NCBI GenBank assembly: GCA_948468985.1
Contig: CAOKKG010000002.1
Span: 7,704-71,703 of the forward strand
Source: an uncultured Eubacteriales bacterium
GTDB lineage: Bacteria; Bacillota; Clostridia; Christensenellales; Christensenellaceae
Direction of reading: 5' to 3'
DNA: 64,000 bases
In this document: positions 4,295 through 56,584 of the stretch, piece by piece
Layout of the letters: the number at the start of each line of letters is the position of its first letter
Position numbering within the stretch: the first letter of the stretch is position 1
The notes under the pieces: model-generated
Seen by the model: the letters and a program-made list of their open reading frames with translations, nothing else
The model's database searches: none
Told to the model about the DNA's origin: nothing
Program-made: the position numbers and the translations under genes

Positions 4295-6664
4295 CTACTT
4301 TAAGGTCACGATCGTCACGCCGCCCTCGCCCTCGCCGTATTTGCCGAGGCGGAAGGATTCCACATGCGGATGCCGCCGCAGGAATTGGTGGATGCCGCTG
4401 CGCAGTGCGCCCGTACCCTTGCCGTGGATGACGGACACCTCGTGCAGTCCCGCCAAAAACGCGTCGTCCAGGTATTTGTCCAGTTCGACGATCGCTTCCT
4501 CCACCGTGTACCCGTGCAGATCGACGGACAGGGAGACCGGCTTGTGCGCAAGCTGCACGCTCGAGGTGCGCATGGCGCGGCGCTTGCCCGTCTGCTTTTC
4601 GACGAGGTCGCTCGCCGCGACATTCACGCTCAAAATACCCGCCTGCACGGACAGCATGCCCTTGGCGTCCGGCAGGGTCAGCACCGTCGCATCCACACCC
4701 AGGCTTATGACATGCACCTCCTGGCCGATTTGCAGCTTTCGGGCGTCCAGCCGCTTGCCGGCCGCCGCCTTCTTTTTCTGCGGCTGCTCGATTTGCCGCT
4801 GCAGCCGTTCCTGCTTCTGCGCAAGGTCCGCACGCACGCGCTCGGTCGTCCGCGTCGCATCGCTTTCAGTCTGCCGCCGCGTCTTGCGCGCCTCTTTCAG
4901 GATGCGCTCGGTCTCCTCCTTGGCCTGCCGGACGATCTCATACGCCTCCTGCCGCGCCTTTTGAAGCGCCTTTTCCCGGCGCTCGGCGATTTCCTTCTCG
5001 ACGGCCTTGACCTTCTTTTCGGATTCCCGCGCCTGCTTCTCCAGCGCCATCGCCTGCTGCATCCGCTGATCGGCGTTCTTGCGCGTGCGCTCCGCCTGGA
5101 GCATCAGGCGATCGAATTCCAGCCGTTCCTCGCGCATAAAGGCGCTCGCGCGCTCGATGACTTCCTTTTTCAACCCCAGCCGTTTGGAGATCAAAAACGC
5201 ATTGCTCGATCCCGCCACGCCCATGATGAGCCGGAAGGTCGGGCGGAGCGAATTCGGATCGAATTCCATGCTGGCGTTTTCAAAATACGGCGCCGTCGCG
5301 GCATATGCCTTGATCTCGCTGTAATGCGTCGTGGCGAAGATGTGTGCGCCGCGGTCGGTGAGCTCGCTTAGGATGGCGAGTGCCAGCGCGGTGCCCTCCT
5401 CGGGATCCGTCCCCGCACCCATCTCGTCCAGCAGCACGAGCGAGCCGCTGTCCGCCTTGCGCAGGATGTAGATGGTGTTCTTCATGTGCGAACTGAAGGT
5501 GGACAGCGACTGCTCGATGCTCTGCTCGTCGCCGATGTCCGCAAACACCGCCGAAAATACGGGTAGCGTGCTCCCCTCCTGCGCAGGCAGGAACAGGCCG
5601 CTTTGCGCCATGAGCGCGAACAGCCCCACGAGCTTGAGCGTGACCGTCTTGCCGCCCGTGTTGGGACCGGTGATGATGAGCGTGCGCACCGCGGGATCGA
5701 CATCCACCGTGACGGGAATGACCTCCGCCGCGTCGATGCCCGGGTGCCGCCCCGCCAGGATGCGGATCCGCCCCTCATCGTTTAGTACCGGGCGGAATGC
5801 CTTCATGCAGATGGCGAGCGCCGCCTTGGCAAAGATAAGGTCAAGGTAGGAAAGGATCTCGATGTCCTGCCGCAGCTCTGCCGCACCCGCCCCCGCGAGG
5901 TCGCTCAATTCCTGCAAAATGCGGGCAATCTCGCGCTTTTCCTCCTCTTCCAAAAGGCGCAGGCGGTTGTTCGCCTCTACGATGCCCATCGGCTCGATGA
6001 ACAGCGTCGCGCCACTCGCCGACTGCCCATGGATGAGCCCCGGAACCTGCGCGCGGTATTCCTGCTTGACCGGGACGACAAAGCGCCCCTCGCGCATAGT
6101 CACGATGCCCTCCTGCAAATAGGCCGCCTGCTCCTTGCTGCGCAGGATGCCGTTCAGCTTTTCGCGGATCTGCGCGTTTTCGGTCTTGATGCGGCGGCGG
6201 ATGTCGCGCAATTCGCGCGAGGCGTTGTCCGCGACCTCCTCCTCGCTTAGGATGCATTGCTCGATGCGCGAGATCAGCGCGTCGTCATACCACAGCCCCT
6301 CGGCCATCTCCGCCAGGCGGACGACATTTCTTTCCTCGTCCCGCCGGATGCCCTGCGCCGCGCGCTTGGCCGCCCGGTGCAGCCGCAACACGCGCAGAAG
6401 CTCCGCACAGGACAGCGCCGCACCCGCCCGCAGGCGGGAAAGCTCCGCCTTGAGATCGTCGAACCCGCTCATCGGGTAGGCCGCCGCCGCGAGCGAGAGG
6501 TGTTCCGCCTCTGCCGTTTCCGCGAGCAGCGCCTCCACCGCCTCCCTCTCCGCGCTGGGCTGCAATGCCCGCGCGAGCGCCGCCCCCGGTTCGGAAAGCG
6601 TCAGGCCGCACAGGCGTTCCCGCAATTTATCAAATCCAAGTTTTCGAAAGACTCTCTCGTCCAC
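4295..6664 (-). CDS. mutS2: MutS2 (ATPase + Smr domain)
   Basis: TGPNTGGKT, DIGDEQSIEQSLSTFSSHM, LLDEMGAGTDP, TTHY, C-terminal Smr DLHG...IHGKGTG; probable GTG start at 6664. Confidence 0.95.
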   Translation of the reverse strand: MDERVFRKLGFDKLRERLCGLTLSEPGAALARALQPSAEREAVEALLAETAEAEHLSLAAAAYPMSGFDDLKAELSRLRAGAALSCAELLRVLRLHRAAKRAAQGIRRDEERNVVRLAEMAEGLWYDDALISRIEQCILSEEEVADNASRELRDIRRRIKTENAQIREKLNGILRSKEQAAYLQEGIVTMREGRFVVPVKQEYRAQVPGLIHGQSASGATLFIEPMGIVEANNRLRLLEEEEKREIARILQELSDLAGAGAAELRQDIEILSYLDLIFAKAALAICMKAFRPVLNDEGRIRILAGRHPGIDAAEVIPVTVDVDPAVRTLIITGPNTGGKTVTLKLVGLFALMAQSGLFLPAQEGSTLPVFSAVFADIGDEQSIEQSLSTFSSHMKNTIYILRKADSGSLVLLDEMGAGTDPEEGTALALAILSELTDRGAHIFATTHYSEIKAYAATAPYFENASMEFDPNSLRPTFRLIMGVAGSSNAFLISKRLGLKKEVIERASAFMREERLEFDRLMLQAERTRKNADQRMQQAMALEKQARESEKKVKAVEKEIAERREKALQKARQEAYEIVRQAKEETERILKEARKTRRQTESDATRTTERVRADLAQKQERLQRQIEQPQKKKAAAGKRLDARKLQIGQEVHVISLGVDATVLTLPDAKGMLSVQAGILSVNVAASDLVEKQTGKRRAMRTSSVQLAHKPVSLSVDLHGYTVEEAIVELDKYLDDAFLAGLHEVSVIHGKGTGALRSGIHQFLRRHPHVESFRLGKYGEGEGGVTIVTLK

Positions 6665-6668
6665 TTGC

Positions 6669-8954
6669 CTATTCCACTCCTCTATAAAAATGCCCGCTGC
6701 TGTATTGGCTTTGCCGGTCGCGGCGGGGGAATTCGCCCTGCCCATGCCAGGCCGCGGCATATCCGCGCACCACGCGCGCCGTTTCCTCGGCCGATTCGTC
6801 CACAAACACGAGCCGCAGCCCCGTGACCCCCGCCCGGCGCACATCCGCCGCCCGATAAAGAGCGATAGGCACTGCGTTATATACCTGCGTCAGGCACACG
6901 CCGCCCCATAGCCGCCGAAGGGGGAAGCGATAGCCCAATTTGTCCTGCAATTCTGCCTTGCCACAGGCTTCGCATCCGCCCGCCCGGCGCGTCGGGCAGT
7001 GATGGAGGTTCATGAGCGGGATGCGCCCATAGGCGACGGTTTCCTTGTTCCCCGGCAAGTCCGCGATGCGGGCGGCGTCGATCTCCTGGCTCACGGCCAC
7101 ATCCGCCGCACCGAGGCGCGCGAGCGCCTCCACCGCCGCCCGGTTGGCCGCATTCGTCCAAAAATCCGCCACCCAAGCAAGCCCCAGGTCCCGCGCCGCC
7201 TGAATCGCCCCCGGGTTGGGCGCCACTACACCCGCGAGGCGGGCCCTATGCGCCGCCGCCACACCGGAAAGCCATGCCCCCGCTGCATCGTCAAAAAACG
7301 GCGGCAGCACCAGCCATATGGGGGACAGCGACTCGTCCGAAAGGATGTCTTGCAGTGCCTCCGCGCCTTCCGGCGCGACATAGAGGCGGTCTGCCCCCGC
7401 CGCGGCCGCCGCGCGCGCCTGCGCCGGCGTGCGCACCTGCGCCGCGACATAGCGGGGTTGCTTGTCCCACACGATGGGCGGCAGCGGCTTTCCCGCCGCC
7501 GGGTGCGCATGCGGTTTCTTTGCGGGGGACAGTTCCCCAAGCAGCGCCGCGAGCGCCTCCCGCCGCAGGGCGTTCATCTGCGAAACGGGCAGAAACGGCG
7601 CGCCCGCAAGCGCCACCCGGCAATCCGTGATGCGCACGGGAAGTCCCGCCGTCTTGCACAGCTGCTGCCGGATGCGATCGGGGGCCGCCGGCTTTTGCGC
7701 CCGTTCCCGCACCGGCGCTTCCGCCCGCGCGGTCTTGCCGTCTGCGCTCGCCTCCAGGCATGCCATGCCGCCCTCCGCGGCAGAAAACCGCAAAGTTACC
7801 GCCGTTTCGCAAAAATCCGCCTGTCCCCGCCCCGCGGCCTGCGCCTTTTGGAGAAGTGCCAAAGAGGCCTTCAGATACACCGGATCTCCCACGGCCGCGC
7901 CCCGCGGCACGGCAATGCGGAACCCATCGCCTTCCCGGTCGGCATAGGCGAGCGCAAAGCCCTGCGTGCCGACCTCGACGCTGTCGCCCTTTTGGAGCGG
8001 CCAATCCGTGCGCGCAAAGCCCCGCCCGCCGCGGATGTCCGCGATCTTGCCGAGATACAGCCCCCGGTGGTTCGGCTTTTTTACATAGGTCACATCGCGG
8101 CTGCCCAAAAGGTAGCCCTCCGAAAACCCGCCGCGGTTGAACATCACCGAAAGCTCCCGCCGCAGCGCCGCCGTGTCCGCCCGCCGCCCCACAGCATAGG
8201 CATCCATCGCCCGGCGATAGGCCGCGACCGCCGAGGTCACATATTCGAGCTTCTTCATACGTCCCTCGATCTTTAAGGAGCAGACGCCCGCGCGGTCAAA
8301 TGCCGCAATGAGGTCGAGCGTGCACAAATCCTTCATGCTCAAAAAGTATCCCTTTTCGCCGAGCAGGCGATATTCCTGCCGGCAGGGCTGCGCGCACCGG
8401 CCACGGTTGCCGCTGCGCCCGCCGAGCACGCCGGACATCAGGCACGCGCCGGACACGCTGGAACACATCGCCCCATGGCAGAATGCCTCGACTTCTATCC
8501 CCGCTTGCGCCATCGCGCACAGGTCGGCCATCGTGCATTCGCGCGCCGCCACGACGCGGGTGCAGCCCAGACTTTGCAAAAGCGCCGCCCCGGCGGCACT
8601 CTGCACCCCAGCCTGCGTGCTGGCATGCAGTGCAAGCCCTGGAAAGCGGGCGTGCGCCTCGGCGATGTATCCGAGGTCGGCCGCGATGATTGCATCCACC
8701 CCCGCGTCATAGAGGCGCCCGGTGTAGGAAAGCGCGTCGGCGAGTTCCCGGGTGTCGAGCATGGTGTTGAGCGCGACATAGACCTTTTTGCCGTGCGCAT
8801 GCGCAAAATCCAGCGTGTCTAAAAGATCCCGCTCGTCAAAGTTCTTTGCATAGGCGCGCGCGCTCCACAGCCCGCCCACATAGCAGGCGTCCGCCCCCGC
8901 GCGCAGCGCGGCCAGCGCAATTTCCTTTTCCCCCGCCGGGGCCAACAGCTCCAT
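6669..8954 (-). CDS. U32-family protein with DUF3656-like region (RlhA-like hydroxylase family)
   Basis: ELLAPAG, HASTQ, E-x-F-x-HG-x-MC-x3-SG-x-C, NRG-x-CAQPCR, LKIEGRMK. Confidence 0.88.
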   Translation of the reverse strand: MELLAPAGEKEIALAALRAGADACYVGGLWSARAYAKNFDERDLLDTLDFAHAHGKKVYVALNTMLDTRELADALSYTGRLYDAGVDAIIAADLGYIAEAHARFPGLALHASTQAGVQSAAGAALLQSLGCTRVVAARECTMADLCAMAQAGIEVEAFCHGAMCSSVSGACLMSGVLGGRSGNRGRCAQPCRQEYRLLGEKGYFLSMKDLCTLDLIAAFDRAGVCSLKIEGRMKKLEYVTSAVAAYRRAMDAYAVGRRADTAALRRELSVMFNRGGFSEGYLLGSRDVTYVKKPNHRGLYLGKIADIRGGRGFARTDWPLQKGDSVEVGTQGFALAYADREGDGFRIAVPRGAAVGDPVYLKASLALLQKAQAAGRGQADFCETAVTLRFSAAEGGMACLEASADGKTARAEAPVRERAQKPAAPDRIRQQLCKTAGLPVRITDCRVALAGAPFLPVSQMNALRREALAALLGELSPAKKPHAHPAAGKPLPPIVWDKQPRYVAAQVRTPAQARAAAAAGADRLYVAPEGAEALQDILSDESLSPIWLVLPPFFDDAAGAWLSGVAAAHRARLAGVVAPNPGAIQAARDLGLAWVADFWTNAANRAAVEALARLGAADVAVSQEIDAARIADLPGNKETVAYGRIPLMNLHHCPTRRAGGCEACGKAELQDKLGYRFPLRRLWGGVCLTQVYNAVPIALYRAADVRRAGVTGLRLVFVDESAEETARVVRGYAAAWHGQGEFPRRDRQSQYSSGHFYRGVE

Positions 8955-54551: not shown

Positions 54552-54580
54552 TTGAGAAAAGCACGCCCATGTGCTACAAT
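54552..54580 (+). promoter_or_regulatory. Sigma-A promoter of ychF
   Basis: TTGAGA-17nt-TACAAT with extended TG. Confidence 0.7.
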
Positions 54581-54709
54581 CGAAGTGCCCCTCGGCCGTG
54601 TGTCGTTTGGCCAGGCGGCGCAGGGCGTTTTGCCCCACCAAAGTCTATTCCCGGGCGCGCCGCCGCATGCGGATCGCCCGAAAAAACCGTTTATAAAAGG
54701 AGAACCGCT

Positions 54710-55810
54710 ATGAAACTTGGCGTCGTTGGCCTGCCCAATGTCGGAAAGAGCTCGCTTTTCAACGCAATCACGCGCGCAGGCGCTGCGAGTGAAAATTACC
54801 CCTTCTGCACCATCGAGCCCAATGTGGGCATGGTGAGCGTCCCGGATGCGCGGCTGGACTACTTGGCCGACATCTATCACCCCGAAAAGTTCACCCCCGC
54901 CACCATCGAATTGGTGGACATCGCCGGACTCGTGCGCGGCGCGAGCAAGGGCGAAGGCCTGGGCAACAAGTTCCTCTCGCACATCCGCGAGGTGGACGCG
55001 ATTTTGCAGGTCGTGCGCTGCTTTGAAAACGAGAACATCGTACATGTGGACGGCAGCATCGACCCTGTCCGCGACGTGGAGACCATCAATTTCGAGCTCC
55101 TGTTTGCGGACATGGAAACCGTGCAAAAGCGCCTCACCCGATCGGAAAAGCTCGCCAAGTCCGGCAACAAGGAATACAAATTGGAATACGAGACGCTCCA
55201 GCAGCTGTATACCGCGCTCGAATCCGGCCGGCCGGCGCGGAGCATCGAATGGACGGAGGAACAGCTCCCCATCGTGCGCAGCCTGTTTTTGCTCACGGAC
55301 AAGCCGATTTTGTATGTCGCCAACATCTCAGAGGACGACCTGTCCACGCCGGAGGAGGCTCTCCCTCTGTTTGTAGCGCTGCGCGATATGGCCGCGCGCG
55401 AACACGCGGAGGTGTTAAAGGTGAGCGTCAAAGTTGAGGAGGAGCTTTCCGCGCTGGACGCCGATGAAAAGGCGATGTTCATCGAGGAACTCGGCATGGG
55501 CGAATCCGGCATCGATCGACTGATCCGCAAATCGTATGAATTGCTCGGGCTCATCAGCTACCTGACCGCCGGACCCAAAGAAGTCCGCGCCTGGACGATC
55601 ACGCGCGGCACCAAGGCCCCGCAGGCCGCCGGCAAGATCCATTCCGACTTTGAGCGCGGCTTCATCCGCGCGGAGGTCATCGCCTTCGATACCCTAAAAG
55701 AACTCGGCGGGGATATGAACCTTGCACGGGAAAAGGGGCTCATCCGCCTCGAGGGCAAGGAGTATGTGATTCAGGACGGCGATGTCGTCGTGTTCCGGTT
55801 CAATGTGTGA
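54710..55810 (+). CDS. ychF: Ribosome-binding ATPase YchF
   Basis: GVVGLPNVGKS, NYPFCTIEPN, DIAGLV-x-GASKGEGLGN-x-FL, GKIHSDFERGFIRAE. Confidence 0.98.
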   Translation: MKLGVVGLPNVGKSSLFNAITRAGAASENYPFCTIEPNVGMVSVPDARLDYLADIYHPEKFTPATIELVDIAGLVRGASKGEGLGNKFLSHIREVDAILQVVRCFENENIVHVDGSIDPVRDVETINFELLFADMETVQKRLTRSEKLAKSGNKEYKLEYETLQQLYTALESGRPARSIEWTEEQLPIVRSLFLLTDKPILYVANISEDDLSTPEEALPLFVALRDMAAREHAEVLKVSVKVEEELSALDADEKAMFIEELGMGESGIDRLIRKSYELLGLISYLTAGPKEVRAWTITRGTKAPQAAGKIHSDFERGFIRAEVIAFDTLKELGGDMNLAREKGLIRLEGKEYVIQDGDVVVFRFNV

Positions 55811-56379: not shown

Positions 56380-56550
56380 CACAAACAAAAACCCTCCTGC
56401 CAAATCGGCAAAAGGGTGCAGCAAATACACATTCGCCTCCCATGCTGCCCCTGAAGCATGTTTGATCTCTCGCGGAGAGAAAGACCCGACTTTACGGTAG
56501 CAAGGACGCTGCTGCGGAGATCGGCCGCATTCCATCTGTTCCGCGATGTT
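56380..56550 (-). ncRNA. Candidate cobalamin-type riboswitch/attenuator
   Basis: GGAA-TGCGG/CCGCA hairpin-GCAG..GCTACCGTAA core, CATG..CATGGGAGG element, 10-bp terminator with U-tract 27 nt before the ATG. Confidence 0.55.
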
Positions 56551-56555
56551 CTTTT

Positions 56556-56584
56556 ACTATAGCATGCGCGCGCACAAAAGGCAA
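56556..56584 (-). promoter_or_regulatory. Sigma-A promoter of the DUF4430 leader
   Basis: TTGCCT-17nt-TATAGT with extended TG. Confidence 0.7.

Follow-up and report, generated by a model that had tools for sequence, protein, structure and literature searches.

A stretch of 64,000 nucleotides (nt) from an uncultured member of the Christensenellaceae (GenBank assembly GCA_948468985.1, contig CAOKKG010000002.1), here called the window, carries a leader RNA that is very probably a corrinoid-sensing OFF riboswitch of the class IIb lineage, the eut-type adenosylcobalamin (AdoCbl) riboswitches of Rfam family RF01482, from which the P6 extension hairpin has been lost. The leader sits on the minus strand, whose coordinates are used for it throughout, between the stop codon of a sulfatase-like gene (56590) and the ATG (56353) of a gene for a 159-residue DUF4430 lipoprotein. 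An earlier note, made from the sequence of the window, had proposed either a variant corrinoid riboswitch or a related aptamer for another ligand. The first proposal agrees with what we find: the leader is of the cobalamin-clan riboswitch type, it has a terminator/antiterminator platform and its relatives align to RF01482 over the full length of the model. Nothing favours the second, and most of the identified genes downstream of related leaders are of corrinoid, cobalt or class-III ATP-binding cassette (ABC) uptake type.

Class IIb was reportedly defined by Polaski 2017 and Johnson 2012. The aptamer in the window spans 77 nt (Table 1) and is predicted to form a four-way junction, P3 to P6, closed by P1/P3, a topology that matches the structure lines of both RF01482 and RF01689. 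The core that had been likened to the cobalamin P4-P6 region, GGAA-TGCGG(7)CCGCA, is found at 56533-56513, with P5 and P6 following: a GC spacer separates P4 from P5 and a single A separates P5 from P6. The closing helix had been missed, the earlier note having paired CTCTC with GAGAG in a local hairpin. We reject this hairpin in favour of P1, given that CUCUCCGCGA is the P1 3' strand and pairs with UCGCGGAACAG, that the hairpin is absent in orthologs, and that P1 covaries at seven of seven pairs. P1 in the window consists of 2 pairs, a 2x1 internal loop (AC opposite C) and then 7 pairs; relatives have 0-2 mismatches where the window has its internal loop. The two junction-proximal pairs (AG/CU) appear to act as P3, and the 2x1 loop as the short mismatched J1/3 of class IIb, a class described in Fig. 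1C of PMC7367189. A second mark of class IIb, given in a paper on M. tuberculosis riboswitches (PMC11260477), is GGAA at J3/4 opposite UCU at J6/3, and both motifs are present in the window. The stretch GUAAAGUC in the P6 region corresponds to the class II L6 and first half of the B12 box. The canonical box had been described as not visible, which is true of the whole (rAGYCMGgAgaCCkGCc; AGCCAGGAGACCuGCC in RF00174) and of its second half, while the first half, AAGUCGGG, is retained and followed by UCUUU instead of AGACCuGCC.

The kinship with RF01482 becomes apparent below the Rfam gathering thresholds (GA). Neither the leader nor any of 18 relatives yields an Rfam match at these thresholds. 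In E-value mode, RF01482 is the best match of the clan in the relatives (cited below by locus number), over the full model and with 33-48.7 bits against a GA of 50 (E down to 1.8e-8): 48.7 bits in L110, 42.3 in L045, 41.0 in L006, 40.3 in L041, 40.2 in L027, 40.0 in L021, 37.9 in L009, 36.6 in L131, 35.6 in both L126 and L005, 33.9 in L028 and 33.0 in L050. The ortholog L006, which has the aptamer core of the window with only loop L4 differing, is among these full-length alignments. The RF01482 consensus reads aUGGAAGUCuGG...CCaGCaCGGuCcCgCCACUGUgA[16]AGUCAGGUCUUU; the P1 3' strand comes next, and a short linker leads on to the P13 hairpin. Its P6 extension takes up 16 model positions; none of the 16 is filled in L110 and L006, and the extension is absent in all members. 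On these alignments, we read the leader as a variant of class IIb/RF01482 without P6 extension, new as a subgroup and not new in kind. In the literature searched, we found no paper with the core sequence, no mention of "Cbl-III" and no description of the subgroup.

Two other assignments were considered and rejected. For the window itself, the best Rfam match in E-value mode is RF01689 (AdoCbl-II, class Cbl-IIa; 22.8 bits against a GA of 36.5), which would suggest class IIa; in that alignment P3 is deleted, and comparison among the relatives reveals no J1/3 bulge, P1 standing directly on the junction. A new aptamer class was suggested by P1 on the junction, the lack of a GGUGG/CCACC P3, the GUCUUU strand and the sub-threshold scores; the full-length RF01482 alignments carry these very features. 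The idea of an atypical, novel aptamer is thus not supported: UGGAA, G-UCU-UU, P1 abutting the junction and the missing second half of the B12 box are all RF01482 consensus. It had been anticipated that a strong match to RF00174 would confirm a riboswitch and remove its novelty; no strong RF00174 match appeared, but the near-threshold matches to RF01482 have the same effect. Neither the window nor any scanned member gave RF00174 (GA 31.5) as its reported match, although one lower-scoring match of the same clan in the window is not displayed, so that a weak match is possible.

Scanning 185,579 species genomes and JGI metagenomes by pattern gave 35 distinct sequences, the metagenomes contributing 12 loci of the same type. 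The hosts are gut or rumen bacteria: Christensenellaceae, Blautia and other Lachnospiraceae, Vescimonas and other Oscillospiraceae, "Faecalibacterium sp. CAG:74" and Eubacterium. Orthologous DUF4430 genes (61-95% protein identity) bear the same leader and have different upstream neighbours, so the leader travels with the gene. The core of the family is near-invariant, (A/U)UGGAAU-GCGG-N6-7-CCGC-AGC-RGC-GUCCUU-GCY-A-CCG-UAAAGU-CGG-G(U/A)CUUU, while P1, the P13 stem, the linker and the terminator vary freely. Within the core, UGGAA at J3/4 is unchanged across the 35 sequences; P4 is 100% paired and near-invariant (one G-C to G-U change), and covariation speaks neither for nor against it; the P6 cap is UAAAGU in 34 of the 35 members and UUAUAGU in one; and J6/3 is G(U/A)CUUU in all 35, the first U of UCU being an A in L124 and L129. 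Leaving the stems and L5 free in the search pattern returned only chance matches beyond the strict family. A pattern that fixed only the 5' half brought in a further three members (L123, L124, L125), which show single changes in their 3' half; no canonical B12 box was found in any of the three. As a separate observation, Lachnospiraceae-type members (e.g. L009, L016, L030, L077, L110) conserve CUCAUA or CUUAUA directly after the P1 3' strand (columns 80-86 of our alignment A2); this motif aligns to "cuUuaAcu" of RF01482, and the group of the window has GAGAUCA or similar there.

The variable helices are maintained by compensation. In alignment A2, 93.5% of the cells are paired, against 45-50% when the partners are slid, and 167 cells are changed on both sides against 46 in shuffles, with none of 500 shuffles reaching 167. 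Double changes occur in all seven junction-proximal pairs of P1 (the closing pair is G-C in 17 sequences, A-U in 16, and C-G and G-U in one each) and in all seven pairs of P13 (closing pair C-G in 25, U-A in 8); in P5, the outer pair is A-U in 7 sequences and G-C in 28. Covariation among the leaders of DUF4430 orthologs had been put forward as a check, and it thus bears out P1, P13 and one pair of P5. Duplex energies agree: cognate P1 strands average -10.6 kcal/mol against -5.2 for non-cognate strands, and P13 strands -7.8 against -2.6 kcal/mol. A covariance model built from the family (R1) scores the window at 56437-56547 with 102 bits (E 1.6e-22), a score that is high by construction, this sequence having been in the training alignment. 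The model finds exactly one copy per family locus and no other match in the window; it matches nothing in about 40 unrelated control loci, and also misses the canonical RF00174 riboswitch in L030. Since the relatives covary and R1 is silent elsewhere in the window and throughout the control loci, the leader is not a chance resemblance.

Downstream of the aptamer lies a switch platform of conserved design. P13 starts nine nt past the P1 3' strand, and its loop L13, UCAGGGGC, is invariant in the 35 sequences. L5 (GUCCUU) and the AGGGGC of L13 can make six pairs in every member, neither loop varying; such an L5-L13 kissing loop is the switch element in all cobalamin classes (PMC7367189). The stem CATGCT/AGCATG of the earlier note is present, double changes occurring in seven of its seven pairs, but the GGGAGG said to follow it is not conserved. 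The terminator and U-tract described there are also present, with 12 pairs in the window and a compensatory A-U to G-C change in L001. A transcript cut at 56402, before the terminator 3' arm, has as its minimum-energy fold the antiterminator (-19.8 kcal/mol), in which GGGGCAGC and GCUGCACCC form 8 pairs with one bulged A; the complete platform folds as P13 plus terminator (-30.3 kcal/mol). The two folds are mutually exclusive, as had been proposed.

This design recurs across the family. Of the 35 members, 33 have a terminator, which lies 24-137 nt past L13 (24-82 nt in 32 of them). Its 5' arm is always pyrimidine-rich with CCCU, CCUC or CCCC; it is complementary to L13 and thus mimics L5. When L13 and the P13 3' arm are paired with the terminator 5' arm and its flank, as in the antiterminator, the mean energy is -12.8 kcal/mol, against -9.2 for reversed arms and -8.7 for shuffled arms, and the real sequence beats its shuffle mean in 32 of 33 cases. 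In L027 and L028, a crude search found no intrinsic terminator before the start codon. These two have a GCCCC stretch just upstream of a GGAGG ribosome-binding site, and may regulate translation instead of termination.

Table 1. Features of the leader and its flanking genes (positions in the window)
Feature	Position	Strand	Sequence and remarks
Upstream gene	57849-56590	-	419-residue membrane protein
Sigma-70-type promoter	56584-56556	-	-35 TTGCCT (56584-56579), 17-nt spacer, TG-extended -10 TATAGT (56561-56556)
Aptamer	56546-56470	-	77 nt
P1, 5' strand	56546-56536	-	UCGCGGAACAG; pairs with 56479-56470
J1/4 (= J3/4)	56535-56530	-	AUGGAA; GGAA motif at 56533-56530
P4 hairpin	56529-56513	-	UGCGG, loop CCGAUCU, CCGCA; aligns with P4 of RF01482 and RF01689
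P5 with loop L5	56510-56499	-	AGC/GCU; L5 GUCCUU (56507-56502); outer pair covaries
P6	56497-56486	-	CCG/CGG capped directly by UAAAGU; stem invariant; P6 extension hairpin absent
J6/3	56485-56480	-	GUCUUU; UCU at 56484-56482; stands in for second half of canonical B12 box
P1, 3' strand	56479-56470	-	CUCUCCGCGA; pairs with UCGCGGAACAG
P13 hairpin	56460-56441	-	CAUGCU (56460-56455), loop L13 UCAGGGGC (56454-56447), AGCAUG (56446-56441); aligns with P13 of RF01482
Antiterminator	56451-56444 with 56422-56414	-	GGGGCAGC (L13 3' half and P13 3' arm) pairs with GCUGCACCC (overlaps terminator 5' arm)
Intrinsic terminator	56417-56391, U-tract to 56381	-	ACCCUUUUGCC, loop GAUUU, GGCAGGAGGGU, then U-tract UUUUGUUUGU
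DUF4430 lipoprotein gene	56353-55874	-	159 residues; signal peptide; lipobox LVSC; ribosome-binding site GGAG (56362-56359)
Terminator after DUF4430 gene	~55860-55826	-	GCGGCGCAA..UUGCGCCGC, flanking A and U runs, ~-28 kcal/mol; common to convergent ychF
ychF	54569-55810	+	convergent with DUF4430 gene

The minus-strand promoter of the earlier note is also present. It agrees with the consensus at 9 of 12 positions, is the sole match in 1.1 kb (0.4 expected) and is retained in the orthologous leaders L001, L003, L005 and L006. From its position, transcription would start near 56549, about 3 nt ahead of P1. Four runs labelled RNA-Seq (wastewater) gave sparse contigs within the coding sequence only and none on the leader, and are uninformative. 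Two relatives carry a Clostridiales-1 RNA (RF01699) immediately before the riboswitch promoter, encoded on the other strand (L021, 4001-4172, 124 bits; L030, 1890-1997, 58 bits).

What the leader would control is a protein with a telling predicted fold. The gene matches Pfam PF14478 with 65 bits against a cutoff of 23.8, and the AlphaFold model of its product (21 homologs) has a predicted local distance difference test score (pLDDT) of 89.8. Foldseek searches with the model return human intrinsic factor, transcobalamin, haptocorrin and the DUF4430 crystal structure 3u7z, with E-values of 5.6e-6 to 1e-4 (2pmv, 5.6e-6; 3u7z, 1.3e-5); the isolated transcobalamin beta domain 5no0 gives a target-normalised template modeling (TM) score of 0.73. 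The matched region has the size of the beta domain of these carriers, and the next fold class follows from an E-value of 0.025. A search of the Protein Data Bank by sequence gave no match. The DUF4430 protein is thus predicted to have the fold of cobalamin-binding beta domains, in line with the transcobalamin likeness that the earlier note gives for the family. The gene has its own terminator and is followed by the convergent ychF, and is therefore monocistronic, as had also been noted. The membrane protein encoded upstream matches the Sulfatase family weakly (23.1 bits against a cutoff of 25) and is probably an LtaS-type or phosphoethanolamine-transferase-like enzyme. Its gene is not conserved at this place: in relatives, the neighbour of the DUF4430 gene is an ArsR-HMA-P-type ATPase operon.

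From the conserved elements and the gene context, we infer a ligand, a kissing loop, a direction of regulation and a role for the protein. The nascent RNA would fold P1 to close the four-way junction (P1/P3, P4, P5 and P6), with GGAA and UCU on opposing joining strands. A corrinoid, most likely AdoCbl or a related adenosyl-cobamide, would occupy the junction, and L5 would dock on the AGGGGC of L13 in the P13 hairpin, 24 nt downstream; docking would hold P13 closed, so that the terminator would form and transcription would end before the DUF4430 gene. Binding of AdoCbl to the eut riboswitch, a member of class IIb, leads to premature termination of the EutX transcript (PMC5821096). In the ligand-free state, L13 and the P13 3' arm would instead pair with the terminator 5' arm and polymerase would read through, leading to a surface-tethered, transcobalamin-beta-like lipoprotein that could capture corrinoids for a transporter encoded elsewhere.

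The genes downstream of the riboswitch across the family fit corrinoid capture and uptake, for which repression by the ligand is the expected logic. DUF4430 proteins of 148-480 residues are found in at least 15 loci; BtuF-like Peripla_BP_2 proteins with a FecCD permease and an ATPase in L077, L107, L110 and L082; secreted immunoglobulin (Ig)-like proteins of 940-1650 residues in L030, L056, L102, L082, L110, L112, L133 and L135; beta-propeller proteins, one with S-layer homology (SLH) repeats, together with a CbiQ-like protein or CbiM-PDGLE in L016 and L132; and an energy-coupling factor (ECF) ATPase with an S component in L123. In L016 (2309-7328) and L132 (4951-10625), the operon comprises DUF4430, an 850-880-residue PQQ-like beta-propeller (with the SLH repeats in L016) and CbiQ-like or CbiM-PDGLE; the PQQ-like propeller may correspond, on the Gram-positive side, to BtuG, which binds B12 at the surface of Bacteroides. 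Not all genes conform: four loci have a thiamin pyrophosphokinase gene before DUF4430, others encode giant surface proteins of unassigned function, and in L111 a threonyl-tRNA synthetase gene comes next. In this last locus (5644-5754, minus strand), the member is followed by a terminator and the synthetase gene comes about 500 nt further on; L111 may be an orphan copy, or a small gene or RNA may lie unrecognised in between.

The thiamin pyrophosphokinase genes deserve attention, as they could point to an aptamer re-purposed for a non-corrinoid ligand, for example another tetrapyrrole or a thiamin-related compound. Riboswitch families such as ykkC and guanine have re-purposed their ligand in this way. 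The enzyme (both Pfam domains of thiamin pyrophosphokinase) is encoded by the first gene after the riboswitch in L026 (5578-6631), L050, L094 (3631-4719) and L125 (4568-5624), all from Vescimonas/Oscillospiraceae, and Peripla_BP_2/FecCD transporters carry haem and siderophores too. However, these thiamin pyrophosphokinase genes are always directly followed by a DUF4430 lipoprotein gene; DUF4430, with its predicted cobalamin-binding beta-domain fold, is the most frequent partner of the riboswitch; the core is RF01482 consensus, also in the junction strands that known structures place around the pocket; and the same loci hold genes for CbiM, CbiQ and ECF proteins, as well as a canonical cobalamin riboswitch nearby. 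We thus regard a non-corrinoid ligand as very improbable. L094 also has a thiamin pyrophosphate riboswitch on the opposite strand (2290-2400).

A closer alternative keeps the corrinoid and changes the specificity: loss of the P6 extension and new L5/L13 sequences could have redirected the aptamer from AdoCbl to another corrinoid, for example methyl- or aquo-cobalamin, a cobamide with another lower ligand, or cobinamide, which would let capture proteins be controlled apart from genes under canonical riboswitches. The 16-nt extension is missing from all 35 members, and minor changes at the periphery reportedly alter cobalamin selectivity (PMC7367189; PMC6158498). The Blautia locus L030 (2560-7068; also L134) is suggestive in this regard: it holds the family riboswitch, a gene for a 1273-residue Ig-like secreted protein and a canonical RF00174 riboswitch (6893-7068, 89 bits), so that two elements 4.3 kb apart control adjacent genes, an arrangement that would be sensible if their ligands differ. 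However, neighbouring or tandem riboswitches for one ligand are common, and the AdoCbl-linked junction motifs of class IIb, GGAA and UCU, are intact and invariant; we therefore consider changed specificity unlikely. In the near-identical L134, the gene after the canonical riboswitch has a CbiK cobalt-chelatase domain (4579-6216). Taken further, the P6-less subgroup could be a distinct corrinoid sensor, a class IIb scaffold with another upper- or lower-ligand preference that switches the surface capture proteins of gut Clostridia (DUF4430 lipoproteins, giant Ig-like and beta-propeller/SLH proteins) independently of the canonical riboswitches, which would control transporter and cobalt genes in the same loci. 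This is a speculative proposal that has only a small chance of being right.

Several points weigh against a class IIb corrinoid riboswitch and have to be set beside the evidence for it. No member among the 32 loci scanned reaches an Rfam gathering score, and in the window itself the RF01482 match falls below 22.8 bits and is not displayed. P4, P6 and the L5-L13 pairing never vary, so that covariation is silent on all three. A thiamin pyrophosphokinase as first regulated gene in four loci does not fit a corrinoid regulon. What bears on corrinoid binding is gene context and the predicted fold of the regulated protein. AdoCbl selectivity may not carry over to the family because the P6 extension of RF01482 is missing and no class IIb structure exists (PMC7367189). 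Finally, the folding energy of the whole leader is unremarkable (z -1.26) and was not used as evidence. This last point, together with the L111 copy and its lack of an obvious regulated uptake gene, would also suit a leader that senses no metabolite, its terminator being constitutive or under the control of a protein or small RNA and its likeness to cobalamin aptamers vestigial. But a 56-nt core that is near-invariant across several families of Clostridia, with flanking helices that change by compensation, is the signature of a folded ligand pocket, and the conserved switch design ties L13 to the terminator arm. We give such a non-sensing leader almost no credence, and a class IIb-type corrinoid riboswitch remains by far the better account.

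The subgroup does not overturn current understanding, and its interest lies elsewhere. Rfam thresholds miss it entirely, meaning that B12-regulated genes go unflagged in abundant gut Clostridia (Blautia, Lachnospiraceae, Vescimonas, Christensenellaceae). Its regulon suggests candidate Gram-positive corrinoid-capture proteins, namely the DUF4430 lipoproteins, the secreted Ig-like proteins of 900-1650 residues and the beta-propeller/SLH proteins, which may parallel the surface B12 binders of Bacteroides (PMC6143338). At 77 nt, the aptamer itself is a minimal form of class IIb that occurs in nature, and could help explain how this class selects its ligand.

Among the known cobalamin riboswitches, the family can be compared with four types. 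In the class I, btuB-type riboswitches (RF00174), one finds the GGAA-type J3/4 and the first B12-box half (AGYCMGG), both shared with the family, and the L5-L13 kissing-loop logic and control of B12 uptake genes, which the family would share; the P2 module, the large P6-P11 extension and the second B12-box half GAGACCkGCC are absent from it. The atypical yvrC riboswitch of Bacillus subtilis (PMC7367189) is likewise off-scheme, placed before B12 uptake genes and equipped with an intrinsic terminator and an L5-L13 kissing loop, the latter putative in the family; unlike the family, it carries both a large P2 module and a small P6 hairpin, neither of which occurs here. Class Cbl-IIa (RF01689, e.g. 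env8, selective for methylcobalamin and hydroxocobalamin) is similarly small, lacks a P6 extension and shares the UAAAGU-type P6 cap and the P4/P5/P6 arrangement. The differences are at the junction: its 5-base-pair P3 (gGuGG/CCaCc) is wholly deleted in the alignment of the window, which scores below GA, its 7-nt T-loop-like bulge at J1/3 is missing from the family, and its J6/3 is AGcG where the family has GUCUUU. Closest is RF01482, the eut-locus riboswitch of Enterococcus faecalis and Listeria, which resides inside the small RNA EutX/Rli55 and whose known output is ligand-promoted early termination. The family differs from it in lacking the 16-nt P6 extension hairpin, in scoring below the GA of 50, in its L4 sequence, in an L5 that is GUCCUU and not uCcC, and in an L13 that is UCAGGGGC and not UCGAGGcAA; it also occurs in Christensenellaceae, Lachnospiraceae and Oscillospiraceae, and acts in cis on genes that fit corrinoid capture and uptake rather than within a trans-acting small RNA of the ethanolamine locus. 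The two nevertheless have in common a P1 that abuts the four-way junction, J3/4 aUGGAA and J6/3 GGUCUUU, the GC spacer, the A before P6, GUxA...AGUC around P6, and a short linker to a P13 hairpin whose loop can kiss L5.

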